64,000 nucleotides of DNA from positions 10,318 to 74,317 of the forward strand of contig CANFLL010000007.1 in NCBI GenBank assembly GCA_947447825.1. The letters run 5' to 3'. A program made the translations under genes and the position numbers. Source of the stretch: Chitinophagaceae bacterium (GTDB taxonomy: Bacteria > Bacteroidota > Bacteroidia > Chitinophagales > Chitinophagaceae). The notes beneath the pieces were generated by a model. The model was not told where the DNA came from. It ran no database searches and saw only the letters and a program-made list of their open reading frames with translations. Positions 1 to 60,731 of this stretch are shown here, in pieces. How positions within the stretch are numbered: the first letter of the stretch is position 1; each line of letters opens with the position of its first letter.

Positions 1-112
1 ATAAATTCCTGATAGAGTATTTTAGTTTAGAATTATAAAAGATATCATCTAAACCCCAATATGAAAATTGATGCTTGCAAGCTGGTAAACGAACATTATT
101 AAGTGTTTCCAT
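1..112 (-). CDS. Partial small ORF directly downstream of the J-protein gene; possibly a CbpM-like chaperone modulator. Only the N-terminal 37 codons are in the window.
   Basis: ATG at 112..110 lies 12 nt after the stop of the upstream J-protein gene. Manual translation gives METLNNVRLPACKHQFSYWGLDDIFYNSKLKYSIRNL with no stop before the window edge. cbpA-cbpM synteny is known, but the sequence resemblance is weak. Confidence 0.3.
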   Translation of the reverse strand, partial: METLNNVRLPACKHQFSYWGLDDIFYNSKLKYSIRNL

Positions 113-124
113 ACGTTAAATAAT

Positions 125-1045
125 TTACATTTCTGTTTTATAGAGTTGTTTTAATGATTGGAATAAATTCCGTTGAGATTCGGTTAACCTTTCAGGTAAA
201 TTAACTTTTAATTGAATATATAGATCACCAAATTCATTTATTTTTCCATATATTGGCATCCCTTTTCCTTTCAAACGAATCGTTTTCTCATTTTGGGTGC
301 TTTCTGAAACCTTAATCTTTAGCTTTCCTGACAGCGTATTGACAAATATTTCTCCTCCTAATATGGCTTCAAAAAAATCAATTTTATGAGACATGAAAAT
401 ATCATCTCCTTTTCTTAGATACTCATTCGATAATCTAACTTTTATTCTTACTAGTAGGTCTCCATTCAATTCTACACTACTTCCCTTGCCTCCTTTTCCT
501 TTTATATTTAATAGCTGACCTTCAAATGATCCTGGCTTTGTTGTTACTCGCAACCTTTCGTGTTCTAAATGAATAATTCGACTTGATCCATAATATGCTT
601 CCTCTAGTGATATTTCTATTTCTGTTTCAAGAGTTGATCCACTAAAATTGCTTGAACTATTTCTTTTATTTTCATTTCCATAGCTTCTAGTTCTACCTGA
701 AAAAAAATGATCGAAAAAATCAGAGAATTCGTTTTGATTTTCTTCGTCAAAGCCAGTGTATTGTCTTTCTCTTTTTTTTGTACCTTCTCCAAAGTTATCC
801 CCTCCGTAATTTCCATCATGCTTTTCCCAACTTTCCCCAATTTTATCATACTGCTCTCTTCTTTTTGAGTCACTCAGTACCTCATTTGCTTCGTTCACAG
901 CCTTAAAACTTTCTTCAGCTTTATTGTCATCTGGGTTTTTGTCTGGGTGATACTTTAAAGCCAAAGACCTATAAGCTTTTTTAATTTGAGCTTGTGTAGC
1001 ATTTTTATCAACGCCTAGAACCTTATAATAATCTTTATATTTCAC
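125..1045 (-). CDS. cbpA: DnaJ-class co-chaperone, CbpA-like (J domain plus C-terminal substrate-binding domains, no Zn-finger region)
   Basis: N-terminal J domain reads KDYYKVLGV...[13 protein letters not shown] and carries the HPD motif. There is no CxxCxGxG repeat. At 306 aa it matches CbpA rather than full-length DnaJ. Confidence 0.85.
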
Positions 1046-1966: not shown

Positions 1967-2470
1967 CTAAAACCTAAGAGTAAATCCTACTTTTCCGCCA
2001 GAGAAGGCATTCCCTCCGCCAAACTCAAGATTTGCACCTAATCTTTTTGTTATATAATATCTACCTCCAATTTGAACGCCTAGCCCCAATCCTGAACTAT
2101 GATTTCCATTGTATCCTTTATCTGGTGAAGACCAATTGTAAAACCCTAGATTCAGCCCTGAATACAAATCAAATGGTGACGGGATTAGCAATATGTTGTT
2201 GAAATGATAATTTATATTTGCGGCTAAACCAGTGATATTTCTCCTGTAATTATTTTGACCCCAATATTCATTATAAGAACGAAATGAAATTTCACCCCCG
2301 AAACTTATATTCTTAATTAAACTAAAATCCATTCCGACATAAACTGGTGTTCCATATTCTGAAAGTCCAATTCCAATATTTAGTTGCGATTGAGCAGTTG
2401 ATAATGTTCGTTGACTAAACGAACTTTTTGTCATAAAAAATAAAACGATAAGTAAACATCCTGTTCTCAT
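1967..2470 (-). CDS. Outer-membrane beta-barrel protein (small porin/OmpW-like)
   Basis: Signal peptide, alternating hydrophobic beta-strand pattern, Gly/aromatic-rich, C-terminal ...GFTLRF ending in Phe. Confidence 0.7.
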   Translation of the reverse strand: MRTGCLLIVLFFMTKSSFSQRTLSTAQSQLNIGIGLSEYGTPVYVGMDFSLIKNISFGGEISFRSYNEYWGQNNYRRNITGLAANINYHFNNILLIPSPFDLYSGLNLGFYNWSSPDKGYNGNHSSGLGLGVQIGGRYYITKRLGANLEFGGGNAFSGGKVGFTLRF

Positions 2471-2720
2471 TATATTAATTAATTTGTTGAAGCATTCACA
2501 TACTAGAAAATATTTTTTATTTTCATTTTGGCATTATATAAATCCAATAAAAAACATTTAAGTATAAATGTTCATTTTTACATTGGTTGTAAAATATAAT
2601 GTCTGATTTGTGTTAAAAGAAAATTAGTCATTGTTAACTCTTTTTTCTGTTGTAAAGGTGGGGTTGTTTTAATAGTCGTTCGTTATACGATTCTATAGAT
2701 AATTTGTATAATAATTCGAT

Positions 2721-3272
2721 TTATGAGTTCTTTGATTTTTTAGTTTTCATTTCTTTAAAAAAATGAGCAGTTACGCCTGTTTCATTCTTAAATTGTGTAC
2801 ACAAATGCGATACACTTGAATAATTTAATTTAAAAGCAATATCCGTGAGAGTCATCTTTTCGTACAGAATTAACTCTTTTACTTTTTCAATCTTATGACT
2901 TATAATATATCTCTCAATTGATATTCCAGTACTTTCCATAAATAGCAATGCTAGTTTTTGGTAATTATAATTTAATTTCTCTCCAAGATATTCTGAATGA
3001 CTTTGTTTGGGTATCTCATCGGCATAATGTATCATCTCTATAATTACTTTCTTAATCTTATCAATTAACAAAGCCTTTTTGTCTTCCAAAAGCTCTAGCC
3101 CATGTTTCAAAAGTTTATTTCCAAGTGCAGCTTGTTCAGGAATAGTAAGTGTATTGACTGTAATTACTTCACCAAGCTCTATAGAAATATATTTTATACT
3201 TAACTCGTCAAGTAGCTGTTTTACAATCATTTTACAACGTATGCACACCATATATTTTACAAACAACTTCAT
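2721..3272 (-). CDS. AraC-family transcriptional regulator with an N-terminal CxxC (HMA-like) domain
   Basis: C-terminal AraC HTH (IAFKLNYSSVSHLCTQFKNETGVTAHFFKE). N-terminus YMVCIRCKMIVKQLLDELSI is typical of a short Bacteroidota AraC subfamily. Confidence 0.85.
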   Translation of the reverse strand: MKLFVKYMVCIRCKMIVKQLLDELSIKYISIELGEVITVNTLTIPEQAALGNKLLKHGLELLEDKKALLIDKIKKVIIEMIHYADEIPKQSHSEYLGEKLNYNYQKLALLFMESTGISIERYIISHKIEKVKELILYEKMTLTDIAFKLNYSSVSHLCTQFKNETGVTAHFFKEMKTKKSKNS

Positions 3273-3416: not shown

Positions 3417-5072
3417 CTAAAATAGTTTTTTTGACATTTTTTTATCAAGACCATATATGTCTTCCCTGAAATTCAATATCCCTTGCTCATCTACCCATGC
3501 GGTAAAATATTTAATTACAACCTGAACCTGTGGCTTTGCATTTACCCATTTTTCTTTATCCTGATTCATTAGCGATTTTATTGAATCAGTCGTATAGGCT
3601 GGCTGTCTTTTTAAAAGAAAGTTAGCCAATTTCTCTGGGCTTCCAATACGTATGCATCCATGACTGAAAGACCGCTTTGATTTTAGAAATACATCCTTAT
3701 TCGGAGTGTCGTGTAGATATATATTGTACTTGTTTGGGAAAAGAAATTTAACCTTACCTAATGCATTGTTAAATCCTGGTTTTTGTCTTATTTCAGGAAT
3801 TAAGCTGTTGTATTTAGTGATTTCCATATTATTATTCTTAAGGTAGTTTTTGTTTCTTGCCATTGCAGGAATCAATTCATTTTTTGTAATACTGGTTGGC
3901 ACATTCCAATATGGGCTAAAAACTATATAACTAATTTTACCACTAAATATGACAGTATTGTATACAGATGTTCCGACCACAACTGGCATACTAAAACTAT
4001 ATTTCCCAGAGTCATAAACACTAAGCTTATAGTCCGGAATATTTACCACAATTCTATCAGCATTAGCAATGTCGGGAGGCATCCATCGGGCTCTTTCCAT
4101 GTTTATTAATATCTTCTGGATCAATTCATAAAAGGTTAAATTCAACTTTTTGATTGTATTAGCATTAATATGACCATTTTCTGTTAGACCAAATCTTTTC
4201 TGAAAACGTTTTACAGCAAATACGAATTCAGTATCATAAAGTGGTAAAGTGTCAAGTTCTTGTGCATCACCCAATAAAAAGAGTCTTTTCTTGATAGAAG
4301 TGATTCTCGCATTGCTTTCCCCCTCCATTATTCTGGAATTAACTGGGATTGAATCCCAACTTGTATTCTTACTTAGTTTATTATACTTAATTAGGTAATT
4401 CTCTAAAAGTCTATATTGTTTATTGAGAGGTTCATATTCAGCAAATGGGCTTTTGTTGCCATCTACCAATGAGTCAAGTAGTTTTGTGATATTTATTTTT
4501 TTTCTTGGTATGAACCAACCCAAATCTTGTACATTTAAATTACTTCCATGATAAATTTTTTCGGCATATCGGAAAAATTGACCAGTCAGTTTCATCTCTT
4601 CTAGAAGTGAAATGCTATCATACTTATTCTTATTTTCAGTATCATCTCCATTAAGCCAATCATAGTTTTGTTGTAATCCAATATTATACAGTGAACTATC
4701 TTCTAATTGACTAATTAGGTCATTCTGGAGATTAAAAAAGTTGTGTGCCTGTTCCGTCATTCCATTCGAATCAAACCAAGCATATTCAAAATCTCTATGT
4801 TTATAGAAAATAAAGAATTGGTCTCTATATCTTTTTAATGAATCTTGATTTGAAATGAAATTTTCAAGTATCGTGCTGTCTAAAAAGCGATTATTGAAAG
4901 TAGTTTTTAAATTTATGCTATTATTAGTCGAGTGCGTTTTATTTGTGCCTGAATTGCAGCGTATAAAAAATATAGAAACTCCAAGATGGACGGTGATAAT
5001 TAAAAGAAAATTAAATACTGTGATTTTAATTGTTGCTAAATTCATAATCTTAAAACCCTTTTTTTTAAGCAT
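3417..5072 (-). CDS. L,D-transpeptidase (YkuD/ErfK domain) with a peptidoglycan-binding domain, YcbB-like
   Basis: Catalytic motif LHDTP...SFSHGCIRIG. PG-binding-like segment AVKRFQKRFGLTENGHINANTIKKLN. N-terminal membrane anchor. The start could be M1 or M10. Confidence 0.85.
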   Translation of the reverse strand: MLKKKGFKIMNLATIKITVFNFLLIITVHLGVSIFFIRCNSGTNKTHSTNNSINLKTTFNNRFLDSTILENFISNQDSLKRYRDQFFIFYKHRDFEYAWFDSNGMTEQAHNFFNLQNDLISQLEDSSLYNIGLQQNYDWLNGDDTENKNKYDSISLLEEMKLTGQFFRYAEKIYHGSNLNVQDLGWFIPRKKINITKLLDSLVDGNKSPFAEYEPLNKQYRLLENYLIKYNKLSKNTSWDSIPVNSRIMEGESNARITSIKKRLFLLGDAQELDTLPLYDTEFVFAVKRFQKRFGLTENGHINANTIKKLNLTFYELIQKILINMERARWMPPDIANADRIVVNIPDYKLSVYDSGKYSFSMPVVVGTSVYNTVIFSGKISYIVFSPYWNVPTSITKNELIPAMARNKNYLKNNNMEITKYNSLIPEIRQKPGFNNALGKVKFLFPNKYNIYLHDTPNKDVFLKSKRSFSHGCIRIGSPEKLANFLLKRQPAYTTDSIKSLMNQDKEKWVNAKPQVQVVIKYFTAWVDEQGILNFREDIYGLDKKMSKKLF

Positions 5073-5355: not shown

Positions 5356-7257
5356 TTATTTTACTTCTTCAAATTCTGCGTCAGTAACAGTTTCGTTTGA
5401 ATCTTGGTGAGCTTCACCTTGATGTCCACCATCTTGAGGAGCTCCACCAGCAGCAGCTTGTGCCTTGTACAAGTCTTCACTTGCAGCAGTCCAAGCTGCA
5501 TTCAATTCTTCCATTGCCTTATCTATTGAAGGAATATCTTGATTCTTGTGTGCTTCCTTCAATTTTTCTAGAGCAGATTCAATTGGAGACTTTTTATCAG
5601 CAGGAACCTTATCACCAAATTCTTTAAATTGTTTTTCAGTTTGGAAAATCAAGCTATCGGCAGCATTAATCTTCTCTACCCTTTCACGAGCTTCCTTGTC
5701 AGATGCTTCGTTGGCTTTAGCTTCGGCTTTCATTTTTTCAACTTCTTCCTTACTTAAACCACTACCTGCTTCTATGCGGATTTTTTGCTCTTTACCAGTA
5801 CCCTTATCCTTGGCACTTACGTGAAGCATACCGTTTGCATCAATATCAAAAGTAACTTCAATTTGAGGAACTCCTCTTGGAGCTGGTGGAATACCATCCA
5901 AATTAAACATACCCAAGCTCTTATTTTGAGAAGCCATTGGTCTTTCTCCTTGAAGAACATGTATTTGAACACCTGGTTGATTATCGCTAGCAGTAGAGTA
6001 AACTTCCGTCTTTTTGGTAGGAATTGTTGTGTTGCTGTTAATCATGGTTGTCATTACACCGCCCATTGTTTCAATACCCAAGCTAAGTGGAGTAACATCC
6101 AACAACAATACATCCTTAACTTCTCCTGTCAATACACCGCCTTGAATAGCAGCACCAATTGCTACTACTTCGTCAGGGTTTACGCCCTTGTGTGGTTTCT
6201 TGTTAAAGAATTTTTCTACTATTTCTTGTACCTTAGGAATACGTGTACTACCACCCACTAAGATAACCTCATCAATTTGAGAAATATTGTAACCAGCATC
6301 TTTCAATGCTGCTTCGCAAGGTTTCAAGCAACGAGCGAATAAGTTGTCAGCTAATGATTCGAACTTAGCACGAGTCAATTTCTTAACCAAGTGTTTAGGA
6401 ACGCCATCAACAGCAGTGATATAAGGAAGGTTAATTTCTGTTTCTGTAGAAGAACTCAATTCAACCTTAGCTTTTTCAGAAGCTTCTTTCAAACGTTGCA
6501 AAGCCATTGGATCTTTACGTAGATCGATGTTTTCTTCTGCCTTAAAATCAGCAGCCAACCAATCCATGATTACCTTATCAAAGTCATCACCACCTAAGTG
6601 AGTATCACCATTAGTAGATTTTACTTCAAATACACCATCACCCAATTCAAGTACAGATATATCGAAAGTACCTCCACCAAGGTCAAAAACTGCAATCTTT
6701 TGGTCAGCATGTTTCTTGTCCAAACCATAAGCCAAAGCCGCAGCAGTAGGTTCGTTCACAATACGTTTAACTACTAGGCCAGCAATTTCACCAGCTTCTT
6801 TTGTAGCCTGACGTTGTGCATCGTTAAAGTATGCAGGTACAGTAATAACTGCTTCTGTAACTTCAACACCTAAATAATCTTCTGCTGTTTTTTTCATCTT
6901 CTGCAAAACCATTGCAGAAATTTCTTGTGGTGTATACAAACGACCGTCTATATCAACACGAACGGTGTTATTGTCACCTTTAACTACTTTGTAACCCCAA
7001 TGAGAGATTTCTTCAGTTACTTCATCAAAACGACGACCCATGAAACGCTTCACCGAAGCAATTGTGTTTTGTGGGTTAGTGATTGCCTGACGTTTTGCGG
7101 CATCACCTACTTTACGTTCGCCATTCTTCAAGAAACCAACTATCGAAGGGGTGGTTCTTCTTCCTTCTTCATTAGCTATTACAACAGGTTCGTTACCTTC
7201 CATTACAGAGACGCAACTGTTCGTTGTACCTAAGTCTATTCCAATTATCTTTCCCAT
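5356..7257 (-). CDS. dnaK: Molecular chaperone DnaK (Hsp70)
   Basis: [22 protein letters not shown], and a full-length Hsp70 with a C-terminal EEVK-like tail. The ORF is open to 7293, but the canonical start [10 protein letters not shown] is at 7257. Confidence 0.98.
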
Positions 7258-7566
7258 AATATTTATTTTTTCTTTCGCCGAAAAGTCAATCATTATGCCA
7301 CCACGATTTTAAATGTAAAAATGGCAGAATAGCACAAATAAACTGTTTTAATTGCTATGATTTCAAGCCTCTTTAGCAGAATTGACTGTTTTTGGGTGAC
7401 ATAATTGGTTTATGGATACTAAAAGTTGTTCTCGTTTAGGTTAAATAAAGAAAAAAAGTGAGTTATAATGTACTTTCTTTTTTTAGGAGCAAAAAATAAT
7501 ATTTACGAAATTTACTCATATACCGATTAGGTTTTAAAGTATAAAAATGAAAAATATAAGTACTTT

Positions 7567-7839
7567 ATAATATCGTATTTGGTATATGTGAAGCCTTCTT
7601 TGGTATATGTGAAGCCTTCTTTGGTATATGTGAAGCCTTCTTTGGTATATGTGAAGTTAATATTGGTATCAGTGTAGCCTTCTTTGGTATATGTGAGGTT
7701 AACATTGGCATCGGTGAAGCCTTCTTTGGGATATGTGAGGTTAACATTGGCATCGGTGAAGCCTTCTTTGGTATGTGTGAAGTAAACATTGGCATCCGTG
7801 AAGTAAATATTGGTATCTGTGAAGTAAGCATTGGTATCA
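7567..7839. repeat. Tandem array of 13 degenerate 21-bp units (core GTGAAG at exact 21-bp spacing)
   Basis: GTGAAG/GTGAGG/GTGTAG cores at 7588, 7609, 7630, 7651, 7672, 7693, 7714, 7735, 7756, 7777, 7798 and 7819. Three units are identical (tgtgaagccttctttggtata). Confidence 0.9.
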
Positions 7840-8149
7840 GGGTTGCGCAAAATAAAAGTCCCTTTTGTAGGCCCAACTTGGAGTCATTAGTATATCAGGT
7901 TTGGCGTAGTTACTTTTCTTTTCATTTCTGATTTGTGCGCAAAAAACTTTGCTATTACTGTGGTAATATTATCCTCCATTACAAATCCACAAAAGGCTTT
8001 GTTTCAATTCAAATTCTAATGTTATCATCTACTCCTTTTCGCTTCTAAAATCTTCTAAACAAATTTTCTTTCCATTATCCAAACAAATTAATAGCATTGC
8101 GCAGAAGTAAGGTTGCAGATTATATTAAATAGCAATATAAAAATAGATT

Positions 8150-20794: not shown

Positions 20795-20975
20795 GGCTTC
20801 GGCAGTTGCCGCAGCCCTTGCGGCAGCCCAGCCAATGGTTGCGGCGGTTGCCTCAGCTCTTGCGGCAACCCAGCCAATGGTTGCGGTGGTTGCCTCAGCT
20901 CTTGCGGCAACCCAGCCGATGGTTGCGGCAGTTGCCGCAGCTCTTGCGGCAACCCAGCCAAGAGCTGCGGCAACA
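20795..20975. repeat. GC-rich tandem array, ~4.3 units of 42 bp, each unit containing a ~10-bp-stem hairpin
   Basis: cttgcggca recurs at 20817, 20859, 20901 and 20943, exactly 42 bp apart. Example hairpin: agttgccgca-gctct-tgcggcaacc. The array is visibly far more GC-rich than the AT-rich flanks (estimated by eye, not counted). Confidence 0.9.
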
Positions 20976-44655: not shown

Positions 44656-45228
44656 AATTGTATTTTTTGTTTTTGCAAATATGCCAATTATTATACCAAA
44701 ATCTATTTTAACCTAGTGTGTGCTGCTAATGATTAGGCATTTTTAAGTATTCTATAAGGAATAAGTGACAAAGCTGCCCTCTAAGATAAAAGTTATCAAT
44801 AAACTGAAAGAGACAAATTGTCTATTTTTAATCCTGAAATGGTGGGCAGCATAGTTGTCATTAACAACATTAAATAAGGGTTTAACTAAGCTAAAAAGTT
44901 CAAAGACTTCCATTATTGTTTAGTTCTGTTATTCTGTATAGGTACAGGCATTACCATGAATAGCTAAAACATGTTTAGCAATTCATACTAGCTAGGTTTA
45001 TTTAAAAAAACAAATAATACCACAAAGACACAGTAGGCACCTATCATTTTAAAAGAGTTCACGTAAACTAATATTTAAAAAACGGGTTACTTTTTTTATA
45101 TGCCTATCTATATGAACCTAAAGGGCAATTTTTTTTATCTGAATTTTCTTTTTCTATGTGCCTATTTTGCCTTTATGGTAAATTGATATTTGAGAATATA
45201 GTATTATTCAACATCCAAAAACAATAAT

Positions 45229-45592
45229 GGCTATCTGCTATTGGGTAATTCGCTTACATTTTTTCCATCGTCTTTGCGTCATTGTAATGATAGGAGAAAT
45301 CTAAAAGAACCAAGTAGGTAATACGATAACATTAAGCCTCTCCTATTATTCCATCAGATTTTTCCTATGGTTACAATGATGAGGATTGTTTGCCTCTTCA
45401 ACATTGTAGAGACGGATATTAATCCGTCTTAAAATGATTAATCAGTTTTTCAATTTGCTTTGCAAATAAGACGGATTAATATCCGTCTCTACAATTTTAT
45501 GTCATTATCTTTTTTTTCTGGTGCGCCAGATGAACCATTCAAAATGATGTTCACTGGTTCCAAAAATGGTTATTACCCAATAGCGGATAGTT
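45229..45592 (+). repeat. Copy A of a structured ~195-nt element (MITE-like or ncRNA-like), interrupted by a ~170-bp insert
   Basis: Terminal inverted repeat ggctatctgctattgggtaat / attacccaatagcggatagtt. Internal 19-bp helix gtaatgataggagaaatct / agatttttcctatggttac. Roughly 75-80% identical to copy B, estimated from a hand alignment. Confidence 0.75.
45403..45495. repeat. Perfect 28-bp inverted repeat with 37-bp spacer, nested inside element copy A
   Basis: attgtagagacggatattaatccgtctt (45403..45430) is the exact reverse complement of 45468..45495. Each arm is itself a 7-bp hairpin (gacggat-atta-atccgtc). Confidence 0.9.
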
Positions 45593-45621
45593 ATTAAAAC
45601 ATTAACACCAATTTTATACCC

Positions 45622-46021
45622 TATAAAAGGAACTTTTTATCTTAGAGAAGGAACATTTTATCCTAGGGAAGGAACTTTTTATCCTAGGGAAGGAGCTTTT
45701 TATCCTAGTGAAGCAACTTTTTATCCTAGTGAAGCAACTTGTTCTCATGCTTAAGCAACTTTTAATTTTAGTGAAGGAACTTTTTTTCTTAAGGAAGGAA
45801 CATTTTATCCTAGGGAAGGAACATTTTCTCATAGAGTAATGGCTTATTCCTCCACAGTAATGAAGTTTTCCTGTACAGTAAATACTTTTTACTCTACAGG
45901 AAAATGATTTTACTGGTCAGGAAAACGATTTTAATGTACAGGAAAACAGTTTTACTGTAGAGGAAAATGATTTTACTGTACAGTAAAATGATTTTACTGT
46001 ACAGTAATGGTCCATTACTCA
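45622..46021. repeat. Tandem array of ~19 degenerate 21-bp units with phased T-tracts
   Basis: GGAAC/GCAAC cores at 45629, 45650, ... 45818 and ACAG cores at 45854, 45875, ... 46001, all at exact 21-bp spacing. Contains a 20-bp perfect palindrome at 45970..45989. Confidence 0.9.
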
Positions 46022-46221
46022 CCAGAAAAAATGGGGTCTGTTATGGTAAAAAGATGCTACAAACCATGCTGGCATTGATAAGTGGTTTTTAAATATAAAA
46101 ATTTAGTATAAAAAATTAAAAATGAATAAAATATAAATTAAAAATAATTTAAAAATATCAATAGGTATCGCATTAATAAGCTTAGTTTTACAGTATTGTA
46201 ATAACAATAAAATGAATCATC

Positions 46222-46848
46222 ATGGGAAAAGCTCAAGTTTCGGTAGATTATTCAAATAACAAGTACACCGACGATGAGTTGGTGACAGAGTGCAACAGTG
46301 TACACAGTAAAATGTCTGGAAATTTACATTTCCCTGATCCTAAACCTACAATGGTAGAATTGGCAGCAGGCATTAAAGCTTTTAGTGACTCAAAGGTTGC
46401 AGCAACAGGTGGGTCAACAACCTTAACGGCTGTGAAAAACGAGAACAGAGTATTGCTAGAAGCGCAAATGGCAGAAGAAGGTGTTACTGTGCAGGAGGCA
46501 AGTGGGGGAGTAGCGTCTATTATTTTATCGAGCGGTATGCACCTCTATAAAATACCTGGCCTAATTGGGGAACTAGGAATGGTTACAGGGTTTGTTGTAA
46601 AAACAAATGATGTAAAAAACAAGGTTACTGGCAGTTGCGACGCAATGGAAAACGCCACATTTTATGAACTGCTATATACCCCTGCACCAGAAACAAGTGC
46701 TAGTATTTGGCAAACAAAAACATCAACCAAAAGCTCCATAACTATTTCTGGGTTGCCTAGTTTTATTCCCTATGTTTTTAAAATGTGTGCTTGTGGCAGT
46801 AATGATGCGCGCAACTATACTAATGGAATTACCAAGGCTGCGGAATAG
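46222..46848 (+). CDS. Hypothetical protein with helical N-terminal half and Fn3-like C-terminal half
   Basis: 208-aa ORF without a signal peptide. The C-terminus has an Fn3-like pattern (FYELLYTP...WQTKTST.SSITISGL...YVFKM.A). A strong terminator follows. Confidence 0.65.
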   Translation: MGKAQVSVDYSNNKYTDDELVTECNSVHSKMSGNLHFPDPKPTMVELAAGIKAFSDSKVAATGGSTTLTAVKNENRVLLEAQMAEEGVTVQEASGGVASIILSSGMHLYKIPGLIGELGMVTGFVVKTNDVKNKVTGSCDAMENATFYELLYTPAPETSASIWQTKTSTKSSITISGLPSFIPYVFKMCACGSNDARNYTNGITKAAE

Positions 46849-46887
46849 AAGTTTTTACGGAAAGGGAAGTGCAATGAATATATAAAG

Positions 46888-46932
46888 GGTTGGCAACAAG
46901 TGTTTAACTACACTGTTGCCAACCTTTTTTTT
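46888..46932 (+). terminator. Rho-independent terminator between convergent genes
   Basis: 11-bp perfect stem ggttggcaaca/tgttgccaacc followed by T8. Confidence 0.8.
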
Positions 46933-46948
46933 GTATTAGATTATTTGC

Positions 46949-47368
46949 TTATTTTTCTTTTGATAAAAACTTTCCATTGCTATCAAATAAAATATCTTTT
47001 CCCTTCACCTCAGCTTCAAACTGTATGTCGCCATTGGGTTTTGTGATGTGCGCCATTTCCACAATTTTTACTCCTTTATAATTACTAGTTAAATAGTCAG
47101 TAGCAGCTTTTGGAAGCTCGGCAAATTTTATGGCATATTCGGATTGCACTAAGGTGCCAGAAGGTGCAATAACCAACGTCATTTTTTTAGCATCCTTGTC
47201 AAAAGTAACCTCATAGTTTCCATCTTCTTTCACCCATTTACCTTCTGTGCTAGGGTAGCTTTTAGAAAAAGTTGTTTTTACAGATGCTGGAACTTTCGAT
47301 TCATTGATTTTTTGTGCAGATACGTAAAACGTACTCACGGTGAAGCATAAAAACAGTAATTTTTTCAT
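46949..47368 (-). CDS. PepSY-like (DUF2874, putative beta-lactamase-inhibitor-like) periplasmic protein
   Basis: Signal peptide plus two repeats of the PepSY-like pattern (VPASVKTTFSKSYP...W.KEDGNYEV; LPKAATDYLTSNYKG..I.E......NGDIQFEAEV). Confidence 0.75.
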   Translation of the reverse strand: MKKLLFLCFTVSTFYVSAQKINESKVPASVKTTFSKSYPSTEGKWVKEDGNYEVTFDKDAKKMTLVIAPSGTLVQSEYAIKFAELPKAATDYLTSNYKGVKIVEMAHITKPNGDIQFEAEVKGKDILFDSNGKFLSKEK

Positions 47369-47571
47369 TTGTTTAATTGTTTAGTTAAACAATGTTACTG
47401 TATGTTTTCTATTCGTTTTTTTTATAGTATGGTGTCTTAACGATAGTTTAACGTTACGAAAAAATGTAAACGTTCTCAAAAAATTTGTTACTCATTGTGG
47501 GGAATTTAATAGGTTATTCAACACTTTTTTAGAAATAGACGAAAGTTGTTTTATCATCAAATAATCTTAAT

Positions 47572-47767
47572 GACTATCATCTATTTGGCAATTCGCTTAC
47601 ATCTTCTCCATCATCTCCCCGTAATTTCGACGATAGGAGAAATCTAACCGAAGACAGTAAGCAAAATCATAACATAATGCCTCCGATATTATTCCATGAG
47701 ATTTCTCCTATCGTTACAATGACGTTTACTAGTTCGAAATACGTTTATTGCCAAATGGCGGATAGTC
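47572..47767 (+). repeat. Copy B (uninterrupted) of the structured ~195-nt element
   Basis: Terminal inverted repeat gactatcatctatttggcaat / attgccaaatggcggatagtc. Perfect 16-bp internal helix acgataggagaaatct / agatttctcctatcgt. Same orientation as copy A. Confidence 0.75.
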
Positions 47768-47998
47768 ATTAAATTTTAATAATATCAATATTTAATTGGG
47801 TCTTTCAAATAATTTAAATGGACATAATAAATAGGAAGTTTTTATCTTTAAGTTCCTCTTCTTTATAAATCTGTAAAAAAAGTAGAATTAACATAAACAT
47901 CTAATTTATTTTAATTTCAATATTACAATTATTACTCTTTTTTCACATTAGGTTGAACTAAACACTTTTTTTAACTGCTTTTTAAAAAACAAATAGCG

Positions 47999-49078
47999 AT
48001 GAATAAAACATTACTCATTATTTCTACAGCAATTGTCATGGTAATTATTGGGTCGTCGGCTATTGATGCACCAAATAGGGCTTCTTATGCTGATGGTAGT
48101 AGGGTTACTGGCTACAGTGGTGGTTGCACATGTCATACTGCTGGCACAAAAGCAGGGGCTATTGTGCTTTCTGGACTAGACACTACCGTTTTAGCTGGTC
48201 AAACCTATCCTATTTCAATAATTATGTTCGATTCAACGGCAAAGCGTTGGGGCTTCGATATGTCGGTGCCTACAGGAACTTTTACAACCACTAATGCTAA
48301 TGCGGCTTTAACAGGAACAAGAAACATACATCATGGATCAAGTGCGCCTTATGGAACAACTACCTCTTATAAAGTAGATAGTATTTTTTGGACTGCACCA
48401 ACAAAGGCGGGTAAGGTTACTTTTAAATTTGCTTGTAACGCAGCAAATGGAGATGGATTGGTTGGTGGCGACCATACCTACAAAGGTACTTTTGCCACAA
48501 CAGTAGTTGTGCCAACACCCATCAATTTAAAATCGTTTACTGCAAATTTGGTTGGTAGTGAAGTGAGTTTGCAATGGGTTACTGCAACAGAACTAAATGT
48601 TGGTCATTTTGAAATAGAAAGAAGTACCGATAAACAGACCTTTTTTTCTGTGAAATCAGTATTGGCAGCAGGAAATGCTTCAAGTGCAAAAAATTATACT
48701 TTTTCTGAAAATGTGAGTGCTTTCACAGGTTTCGTTTACTACAGGTTGAAAACGGTTGACAAAACTGGTGTTACCTCTTACTCTGCCATTGAAGCAGTAG
48801 AAGTGAAAGCAAAAAACAATTTAATTACTTCTATCTATCCAAATCCTACTCATAGTGGTCAATCCATTCATTTTTCCTACAGTTCAGAAAAAGTTGCTAC
48901 AGTGGCTTTTTCAGTAGTAAACACTTTAGGTAAAAAATTATTTACTCAAAACATTTCCGTTAGTAAAGGAACTAATTTATTGACCTTGCCTATTGGGTCA
49001 TTAGCAGCAGGTAAATACATCTTAACAGCATCTGTAAACAATGTTTTAGTAAGTAGTTCAAGCTTACTTATTCAATAA
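47999..49078 (+). CDS. T9SS-secreted protein with unknown N-terminal beta-rich domain (GGCTCH motif), pre-CTD module and type-A CTD
   Basis: Signal peptide. C-terminal ITSIYPNPTHSGQSIHFSY...GKYILTASVNN...LLIQ. The pre-CTD module is shared with two other cargos in this window. Confidence 0.8.
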   Translation: MNKTLLIISTAIVMVIIGSSAIDAPNRASYADGSRVTGYSGGCTCHTAGTKAGAIVLSGLDTTVLAGQTYPISIIMFDSTAKRWGFDMSVPTGTFTTTNANAALTGTRNIHHGSSAPYGTTTSYKVDSIFWTAPTKAGKVTFKFACNAANGDGLVGGDHTYKGTFATTVVVPTPINLKSFTANLVGSEVSLQWVTATELNVGHFEIERSTDKQTFFSVKSVLAAGNASSAKNYTFSENVSAFTGFVYYRLKTVDKTGVTSYSAIEAVEVKAKNNLITSIYPNPTHSGQSIHFSYSSEKVATVAFSVVNTLGKKLFTQNISVSKGTNLLTLPIGSLAAGKYILTASVNNVLVSSSSLLIQ

Positions 49079-51227: not shown

Positions 51228-51587
51228 TTTATTTTTGAATGTTATAATTTGAATATTGTTTTTTGAAATTAAGGCATAAACTGTTTATCGTTTATGCTGT
51301 GAAAGTAGCGTATAATTATCTAAATGGGGGTATTAACTTGTTGTTATCAAAACTAGCAAAGCCCAAGAAAACCTATTTATTGGAAGTTTTTAGCTTAGGA
51401 GAAAGTCTTTTATGGGTAGATTGTATTTCTAGAAAAGCATTATTGATTAATCACTATCTTTTTTTTAATTAACCAAAATATAGTTAGGCATTAAACCAGA
51501 ATCCTTGTGTTTCTTTGCAACAATTGAAAACCACATTCAATGAAAAATGTGGCGTTTGAACTGTTTGACTCATAAATTTTATAATAA

Positions 51588-60658: not shown

Positions 60659-60731
<73 letters not shown>

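Follow-up and report, generated by a model that had tools for sequence, protein, structure and literature searches.

Correia elements (CREE) of Neisseria are non-coding, intergenic repeats of ~100-200 bp that have terminal inverted repeats (TIRs) of ~26 bp, are dispersed, form long hairpins when transcribed, and have filled and empty sites between strains. 6S RNA and 6S-Flavo (RF00013, RF01685) are ~200 nt long and show, in outline, a stem that closes a large internal bubble, and a terminal stem. Within the Bacteroidota, BrickBuilt, a transposable element of the miniature inverted-repeat type (MITE) in Porphyromonas gingivalis, is described as always intergenic and near the promoters of adjacent genes, with small inverted-repeat ends, and as built around a 23-nt minisatellite (PMC4596501). 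Here, a 202-bp element is described that is present as two copies, A and B, in a 64-kb stretch of DNA (the window) from one contig of a GTDB Chitinophagaceae bacterium. Region 45229-47767 of the window had prompted the analysis, as an original prediction had read it as two copies of either a 6S-like structured RNA or a MITE.

The element is similar to Correia elements in all of the characteristics listed above. However, a TA dinucleotide is duplicated at Correia insertion sites and 8 bp are duplicated here, there is no sequence similarity, the host belongs to Chitinophagaceae, and the present element has a second, internal palindrome of 26-27 bp. In comparison to BrickBuilt as described, it has no internal tandem repeat (a 21-nt tandem array merely adjoins copy A) and differs in its 8-bp duplication, host lineage, and internal palindrome. 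It resembles 6S RNA in length and in this outline of stems and bubble, but it is multi-copy and mobile with target duplications, has no conserved locus and no covariance-model match, and folds equally well or better on the minus strand.

Overall, elements A and B are very probably (roughly 0.88) copies of a previously undescribed MITE family with a 202-bp unit and an 8-bp target duplication. This assignment is based on the exact unit, the TIRs, the 8-bp duplications, an empty site, dispersed contexts, signs of decay, and the lack of a matching Rfam family. It is further supported by two other small TIR elements in these genomes that show presence/absence differences between strains.

Structure of the repeat unit

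To find relatives of the window copies, a pattern of two blocks was scanned against a set in which each species is represented by one genome, and further loci were reached through neighbour proteins. The pattern scan returned three copies (loci L009, L010, and L011), all in the Chitinophagaceae metagenome-assembled genome (MAG) CANCVE01. Gapless alignment of the four full copies (A minus an insert, B, L009, and L010) gives a unit of exactly 202 bp, with pairwise identities of 77.7-90.6% and zero gaps once the insert of copy A is removed (Table 1). Copies A and B are 77.7% identical, within the ~75-80% originally predicted, and direct reading, a repeat search, and BLAST agree that both lie on the plus strand, as had been proposed. 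Their predicted location also stands, but the length is 202 bp, not ~195, and the insert reported in copy A is present at 168 bp rather than ~170. The repeat search recovered the element as two families, D3 (45207-45379 versus 47550-47722, 76%) and D5 (45543-45598 versus 47718-47773, 80%), which are two halves of one element parted in copy A by extra DNA, so that the whole of copy A including its insert spans 45226-45595. Neither BLAST nor an nhmmer profile detected a third copy within the window.

The fold that had been predicted for both copies, with a closing helix, unpaired stretches, and an internal helix bearing a loop, was recovered with corrected limits. Element positions 1-24 pair with 179-202 to form 24-bp TIRs, in which 94.8% of cells are paired across the four copies; the arms reach 25-26 nt in the repeat search once flanking bases are included. 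Positions 52-78 pair with 130-156 to form an internal palindrome (92.6% of cells paired) with arms of 26-27 bp, an interval of 51 nt between them, and a perfect part of 17 bp in copy B. Two unpaired "bubble" segments separate the TIRs from the internal palindrome in every copy. The TIR consensus is AATGACTATCCGCTATTTGGYAAT, the end sequence being also given as AATGACTATCCGCTATTTGG. A 20-nt end motif, with up to three mismatches allowed, occurs four times in the window, each time at one of the four element ends, and 0 times in 100 shuffles. Additionally, the hexamer AATGAC or its complement GTCATT is found four times per element, marking the two outer ends and the two feet of the palindrome, with its orientation alternating from one site to the next. 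The element has no coding capacity: every frame is broken by stops in three of four translated sequences, and although a single frame of copy B, 77 codons long, is free of stops, gene callers placed no gene on copy A or copy B.

Table 1. Positions of the element copies, their parts, and related features. Positions refer to the window unless another locus is named.
Feature	Locus	Position	Strand	Evidence or remark
Copy A, element positions 1-154	Window	45226..45379	+	Repeat search, alignment, nhmmer
Copy A, left TIR	Window	45226-45249	+	
Copy A, palindrome 5' arm	Window	45277-45303	+	
Copy A, most of palindrome 3' arm	Window	45355-45379	+	
Copy A, nested insertion of another repeat family	Window	45380..45547	+	168 bp; without it the 202-bp element aligns gap-free
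Copy A, element positions 155-202	Window	45548..45595	+	Right TIR at 45572-45595
Copy A, left target-site duplication AAAACAAT	Window	45218..45225		7/8 matches to 45596-45603, read directly
Copy A, right target-site duplication AAAACATT	Window	45596..45603		Direct reading; flank comparison
Copy B, complete 202-bp element	Window	47569..47770	+	Gapless alignment with three other copies; nhmmer model 1-202, E = 1.4e-63
Copy B, left TIR AATGACTATCATCTATTTGGCAAT	Window	47569..47592	+	Repeat search, end-motif scan, pairing count
Copy B, right TIR ATTGCCAAATGGCGGATAGTCATT	Window	47747..47770	+	Repeat search, end-motif scan, pairing count
Copy B, internal palindrome 5' arm (element 52-78)	Window	47620..47646	+	Repeat search, pairing count
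Copy B, internal palindrome 3' arm (element 130-156)	Window	47698..47724	+	Repeat search, pairing count
Copy B, left flank ATAATCTT, candidate decayed target-site duplication	Window	47561..47568		4/8 matches to 47771-47778; alone not above chance
Copy B, right flank AAATTTTA, candidate decayed target-site duplication	Window	47771..47778		Flank comparison
Complete copy	L009, MAG CANCVE01	2282-2483		
Complete copy	L010, MAG CANCVE01	6061-6262		
Copy cut off after position 159	L011, MAG CANCVE01	3032-3190		
Variant element	L015, MAG CANCVE01	7208-7369		Keeps left ~65 nt including TTCGCTTAnnnCTTCTCCATAnTCTT, and feet CGTCATT...AATGACG; stem GCGAGGCACGAAGCAACC...
Variant element	L027, upstream of GH115 orthologue	67-229		Same left part, TTCGCTTAnnnCTTCTCCATAnTCTT, and feet; unrelated stem GCGAGGCACGAAGCAACC...
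Solo internal hairpin	L029	2414-2504		No outer repeats

The DNA within and next to copy A contains repeats of its own. Direct repeats of 7 bp (AATGATG) bound the nested insert, which holds a hairpin with 32-bp arms (45400-45431 and 45467-45498) that are themselves palindromic (GACGGATATTAATCCGTC), followed by TTTTTTTCTGGTGCGCCAGATGA. A relative of this insert that is 81-84% identical is located upstream of glgB in MAG CANCVE01 (L015 9567-9726). The tandem array at 45609-46028 begins ~14 bp past the right end of copy A and reaches gene 46222. It consists of sub-arrays of AAGGAACTTTTTATCCTAGGG (~10 units) and of the partly palindromic TTTTACTGTACAGGAAAATGA (~8 units), and a similar unit is found downstream of copy B at 47830-47848.

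Target-site duplications and an orthologous empty site

Direct repeats of 8 bp abut the ends of the element in L009, where the flanks GATAAGTT and GATAAGTT match at 8/8 positions. Similarly, the flanks match at 7/8 positions in L010 (AGAATTCT and AGAAATCT) and around copy A, for which the flank comparison scored 7/8 in a frame one base off. The chance level for 8-mers 202 bp apart to match at 7/8 or more positions is 0.0015 overall and 0.0026 locally in the window. Therefore, three of four sites with at least 7/8 matches are not explained by chance, even when the choice of frame is allowed for. A duplication of 9 bp or of TA/TTAA gave a poorer fit than 8 bp, both in the flank comparison and by direct reading.

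Orthologues of the 462-amino-acid (aa) protein encoded next to the L009 copy are present in L029 (97% identity) and L030 (88%). Locus L029 is a filled site and no element was found in L030. When the element and one duplicate are removed from L009, the remaining sequence aligns colinearly with L030 across the junction, and L030 holds a single AACCTATT where L009 carries AACTTATC on each side. L030 is a precise orthologous empty site, with the same gene neighbourhood and one 8-bp target copy. Relatives of GlgB provided no usable empty site, as glgB gene order is not conserved at 82-84% identity and no full copy is present there, and relatives of GH115 provided just a filled site and a variant.

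All copies are intergenic and their contexts are unrelated. Copy A is flanked by an outer-membrane beta-barrel gene and a gene for a 208-aa unknown protein, copy B by a PepSY-like gene and a gene for a protein sorted by the type IX secretion system (T9SS), the L010 copy by GH115 and a gene for a 220-aa unknown protein, the L011 copy by a PIN-domain gene and a photolyase-related gene, and the L009 copy by two minus-strand genes, to both of which it is antisense. It had been pointed out that both window copies are upstream of plus-strand genes (46222 and 47999); this holds for A and B, but no gene association is consistent across copies. No neighbour family is common to the copies; the 208-aa protein encoded downstream of copy A, for instance, is not related to the 220-aa one that follows the L010 copy.

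Decay is visible at several sites: copy A is split by its insert, the L011 copy stops at position 159, and the duplication around copy B is eroded. Additionally, contigs of independent assemblies of this species terminate within the elements (at 45315, at 47608, and twice at 47696), as is expected where repeated DNA breaks assemblies. The two contigs that share an end come from two assemblers and two samples, and both start at exactly the same base (47696), close to the inner edge of the copy B palindrome's 3' arm, which suggests a structural variant that assembly could not resolve. Of the two identities originally offered for the element, it is thus the MITE that is borne out by the 8-bp duplications, the varied positions, both orientations relative to neighbour genes, and the empty site.

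Alternative explanations

Several observations weigh against the MITE assignment. The flanks of copy B match at only 4/8 positions. Few copies have been seen so far: two in the window, three in CANCVE01 (one shared with CANCVK01), and one in L029, with L015 and L027 contributing variants. Scanning 30 window open reading frames (ORFs) revealed no transposase or recombinase domain, nor did an autonomous element or a transposase bearing such ends come to light. Across subfamilies, conservation is highest in an unpaired bubble strand, TTCGCTTAnnnCTTCTCCATAnTCTT, rather than at the extreme ends, a pattern for which a pure transposase-binding model does not obviously account. Finally, 5 of 51 helix pairs are changed on both sides, a number reached by 8 of 500 column shuffles (four sequences), and the plus strand has nine G:T and three A:C pairs, so that some selection on a plus-strand transcript could have contributed.

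The last of these points would be accommodated if the element were a structured non-coding or cis-regulatory RNA gene, 6S-like and encoded on the plus strand, that was duplicated or spread and whose helices are under selection. The plus strand of copy B folds at -58.3 kcal/mol (z = -6.75), 4/5 copies are oriented like their next downstream gene, and the conserved unpaired strand is common to variants with entirely different hairpin sequence. However, the long palindromic layout allows either strand to fold into a stable hairpin, and the minus strand of copy B folds better (-68.4 kcal/mol, z = -7.31). The G:T positions had been taken to mark the plus strand as the RNA, a claim that is not upheld: a ratio of 9:3 falls short of significance, and the L009 and L010 copies do not count as independent. 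Across two helices and four copies, 182 pairs are Watson-Crick, 9 are G:T, 3 are A:C, and 18 are other mismatches. The doubly changed pairs are 18/185, 21/182, 59/149, 60/148, and 61/147, and the first two are the compensatory double changes noted in the closing helix, which are real (18/185 is G-C in A and T-A in B; 21/182 is T-A in A and C-G in B). Arm complementarity is kept slightly better than column shuffles predict, although the effect is weak. The internal stem of copy B is chimeric, with 5' and 3' arms that belong to different types, so that three of the four pairs at 59-62 are broken; the arms of L011 also differ in this stretch. Paired changes are known to arise at the DNA level when template switching corrects quasi-palindromes, and transposon ends are expected to match, so covariation in a long DNA palindrome is weak evidence for RNA. 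The apparent covariation is accounted for equally well by upkeep of the palindrome as DNA, and may reflect the descent of the copies from different masters with matching ends, together with template-switching correction. At the gathering threshold, Rfam gave one tRNA (60659-60731) in the window and nothing else, and zero matches in five related loci; the check proposed for 6S and 6S-Flavo was run on 45000-48000 and found neither even at E <= 10, the matches there being spurious microRNA-like ones to the nested insert's hairpin. Scans for promoters (sigma-70-like, or the Bacteroidota -33/-7 type TTTG...TAnnTTTG) and terminators yielded nothing element-specific. The 8-bp target duplications and the precise empty site show insertion as DNA, and the copies share no neighbouring gene family, one being antisense to both neighbours (L009), one split by an insert (A), and one truncated (L011). 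A structured RNA of this kind is therefore very unlikely.

Two further alternatives involve DNA rearrangement by other enzymes. In one, a site-specific recombinase would flip the ~154-bp segment between the TIRs and thus toggle downstream genes for surface or secreted proteins. Inverted repeats of 24-26 bp do flank a short intergenic segment upstream of genes for T9SS-sorted and unknown proteins, which is the usual setting of Bacteroidota invertons, and several assemblies break within the elements. However, a single orientation is present in all spanning assemblies (for A and B, those of the window, L001/L005, and L002; also L010 and L025, and L009 and L029), and the contigs break at element positions 40, 90, and 128 rather than at the inner TIR edges. 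The scanned window ORFs include no recombinase (one may still act in trans), no Bacteroidota-type promoter is located inside the element, and 8-bp duplications with an empty site are not inverton features; such a switch is hardly credible. In the other, an HUH (Y1) transposase specific for hairpins with conserved feet would mobilise a REP- or PATE-like palindrome in the form of single-stranded DNA. The four alternating occurrences of GTCATT...AATGAC are consistent with this, as are an inner hairpin that begins with CGTCATT and ends with AATGACG, the replacement of its stem by an unrelated one (L015 7254-7336 and L027), its solo occurrence in L029, and complementarity preserved through paired changes. 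IS200/IS605 and REP/RAYT systems, however, have no target-site duplication and no long TIRs, contrary to the 8-bp duplications and 24-bp TIRs observed, and no RAYT or TnpA gene was found in any locus examined. Transposition by such an enzyme is highly improbable.

A possibly exchangeable internal hairpin

The internal hairpin looks to be an exchangeable module, and the element modular, as the variants in L015 and L027 combine the left part of the element with a different stem. A 202-bp transposon might then carry a separate module (CGTCATT-stem-loop-stem-AATGACG, following TTCGCTTAnnnCTTCTCCATAnTCTT) that acts as a functional RNA or as a hairpin recognised in single-stranded DNA and that is spread along with the MITE. 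The occurrence of two unrelated stems (the L010 type and the L015/L027 type), the solo hairpin, the paired changes, and the mild plus-strand G:U excess all speak for this idea, which is nonetheless unlikely. If it were true, the module would be a mobile regulatory RNA or hairpin family in Bacteroidota and not junk DNA. A literature search on the hairpin motif CATTGCGAGG returned just unrelated primer sequences.

Proposed mode of transposition

As a MITE, the element would depend on a transposase encoded elsewhere in the genome that binds both ends and excises or copies it. The element would then be inserted at a staggered 8-bp cut in AT-rich intergenic DNA, and repair of this cut would generate the 8-bp direct repeats. 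The transposase is probably a DDE enzyme that makes 8-bp staggered cuts. Duplications of 8 bp are made by several IS families, e.g., IS1595, ISL3, IS6, IS66, and IS256, and the element ends are not known to resemble any IS terminus. Copies A and B are old insertions, given their ~78% mutual identity and the decayed duplication of B.

Insertions of this kind may affect neighbouring genes. Were the element transcribed by read-through, a 5' or 3' untranslated region would gain a long hairpin, as in Correia, ERIC, and RUP elements. Both window copies occupy divergent promoter regions that belong to genes for surface or secreted proteins, whose expression they may alter.

The assignment removes a false candidate for a new structured RNA from the annotation, and provides a defined MITE family (202 bp, 24-bp TIR, 8-bp target-site duplication) for under-studied freshwater Chitinophagaceae related to Sediminibacterium and Parasediminibacterium. 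It is also a caution for RNA discovery, as long palindromic transposons can give strong folding z-scores and apparent compensatory changes without an RNA gene. Together with three other small mobile or repeat families in the same loci, the element shows that these genomes are actively reshaped by tiny transposons.

Distribution and host genomes

Among themselves, the copies in L009, L010, and L011 are 91-93% identical, and their identity to the window copies is 80-85%. A second MAG, CANCVK01 (L025), also has the L010 copy, and another full copy is located in L029. The family is thereby dispersed over at least three related Chitinophagaceae genomes. When the same pattern was applied to JGI metagenomes, three matches were obtained, all of them chance matches with no further similarity. 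In viral contigs, the end motif occurred twice by chance in one phage coding sequence without a partner repeat, and two other motifs had zero matches; a distant blastn search of a plasmid collection gave nothing above noise. In Parasediminibacterium sp. JCM 36343, a G+C-rich intergenic stretch (L018 15738-15784) contains GGAGAAATCTAACCGAA, which has the same letters as part of the internal arm and loop of copy B, and scored an nhmmer E-value of 0.003. This match could be due to chance or to a remote relative.

The window encodes housekeeping functions, xylan and starch utilisation, SusC/SusD, and T9SS-sorted proteins. Its GlgB is closest (78-84% identity) to proteins of a Chitinophagaceae MAG, Parasediminibacterium, and Sediminibacterium, and near-identical contigs are solely environmental metagenome assemblies.

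Other small repeats and mobile elements

The array adjoining copy A is one of three intergenic arrays in the window with tandem units of 21 nt (or 42 nt), the others being at 7578-7840 and 20800-20972. Their units are unrelated, and a period of 21 nt corresponds to two helical turns.

Strain L006, which belongs to the same species, carries an insertion of ~184 bp at ~3859-4050, at a site that is empty in the window (51459-51466). This insertion has TIRs (GTAACTATTCAG...CTGAATAGTTA) and an exact 8-bp duplication (CTTTTTTT), and is a second MITE family with an 8-bp duplication, polymorphic between strains. Another family of small mobile elements is represented by a ~176-bp element at L009 2001-2176, with TIRs ACCCAAATTCCGCA...TGCGGAATTTGGGT and a probable TA duplication, which is present in MAG CANCVE01 and absent from the 97%-related L029 (~3948).

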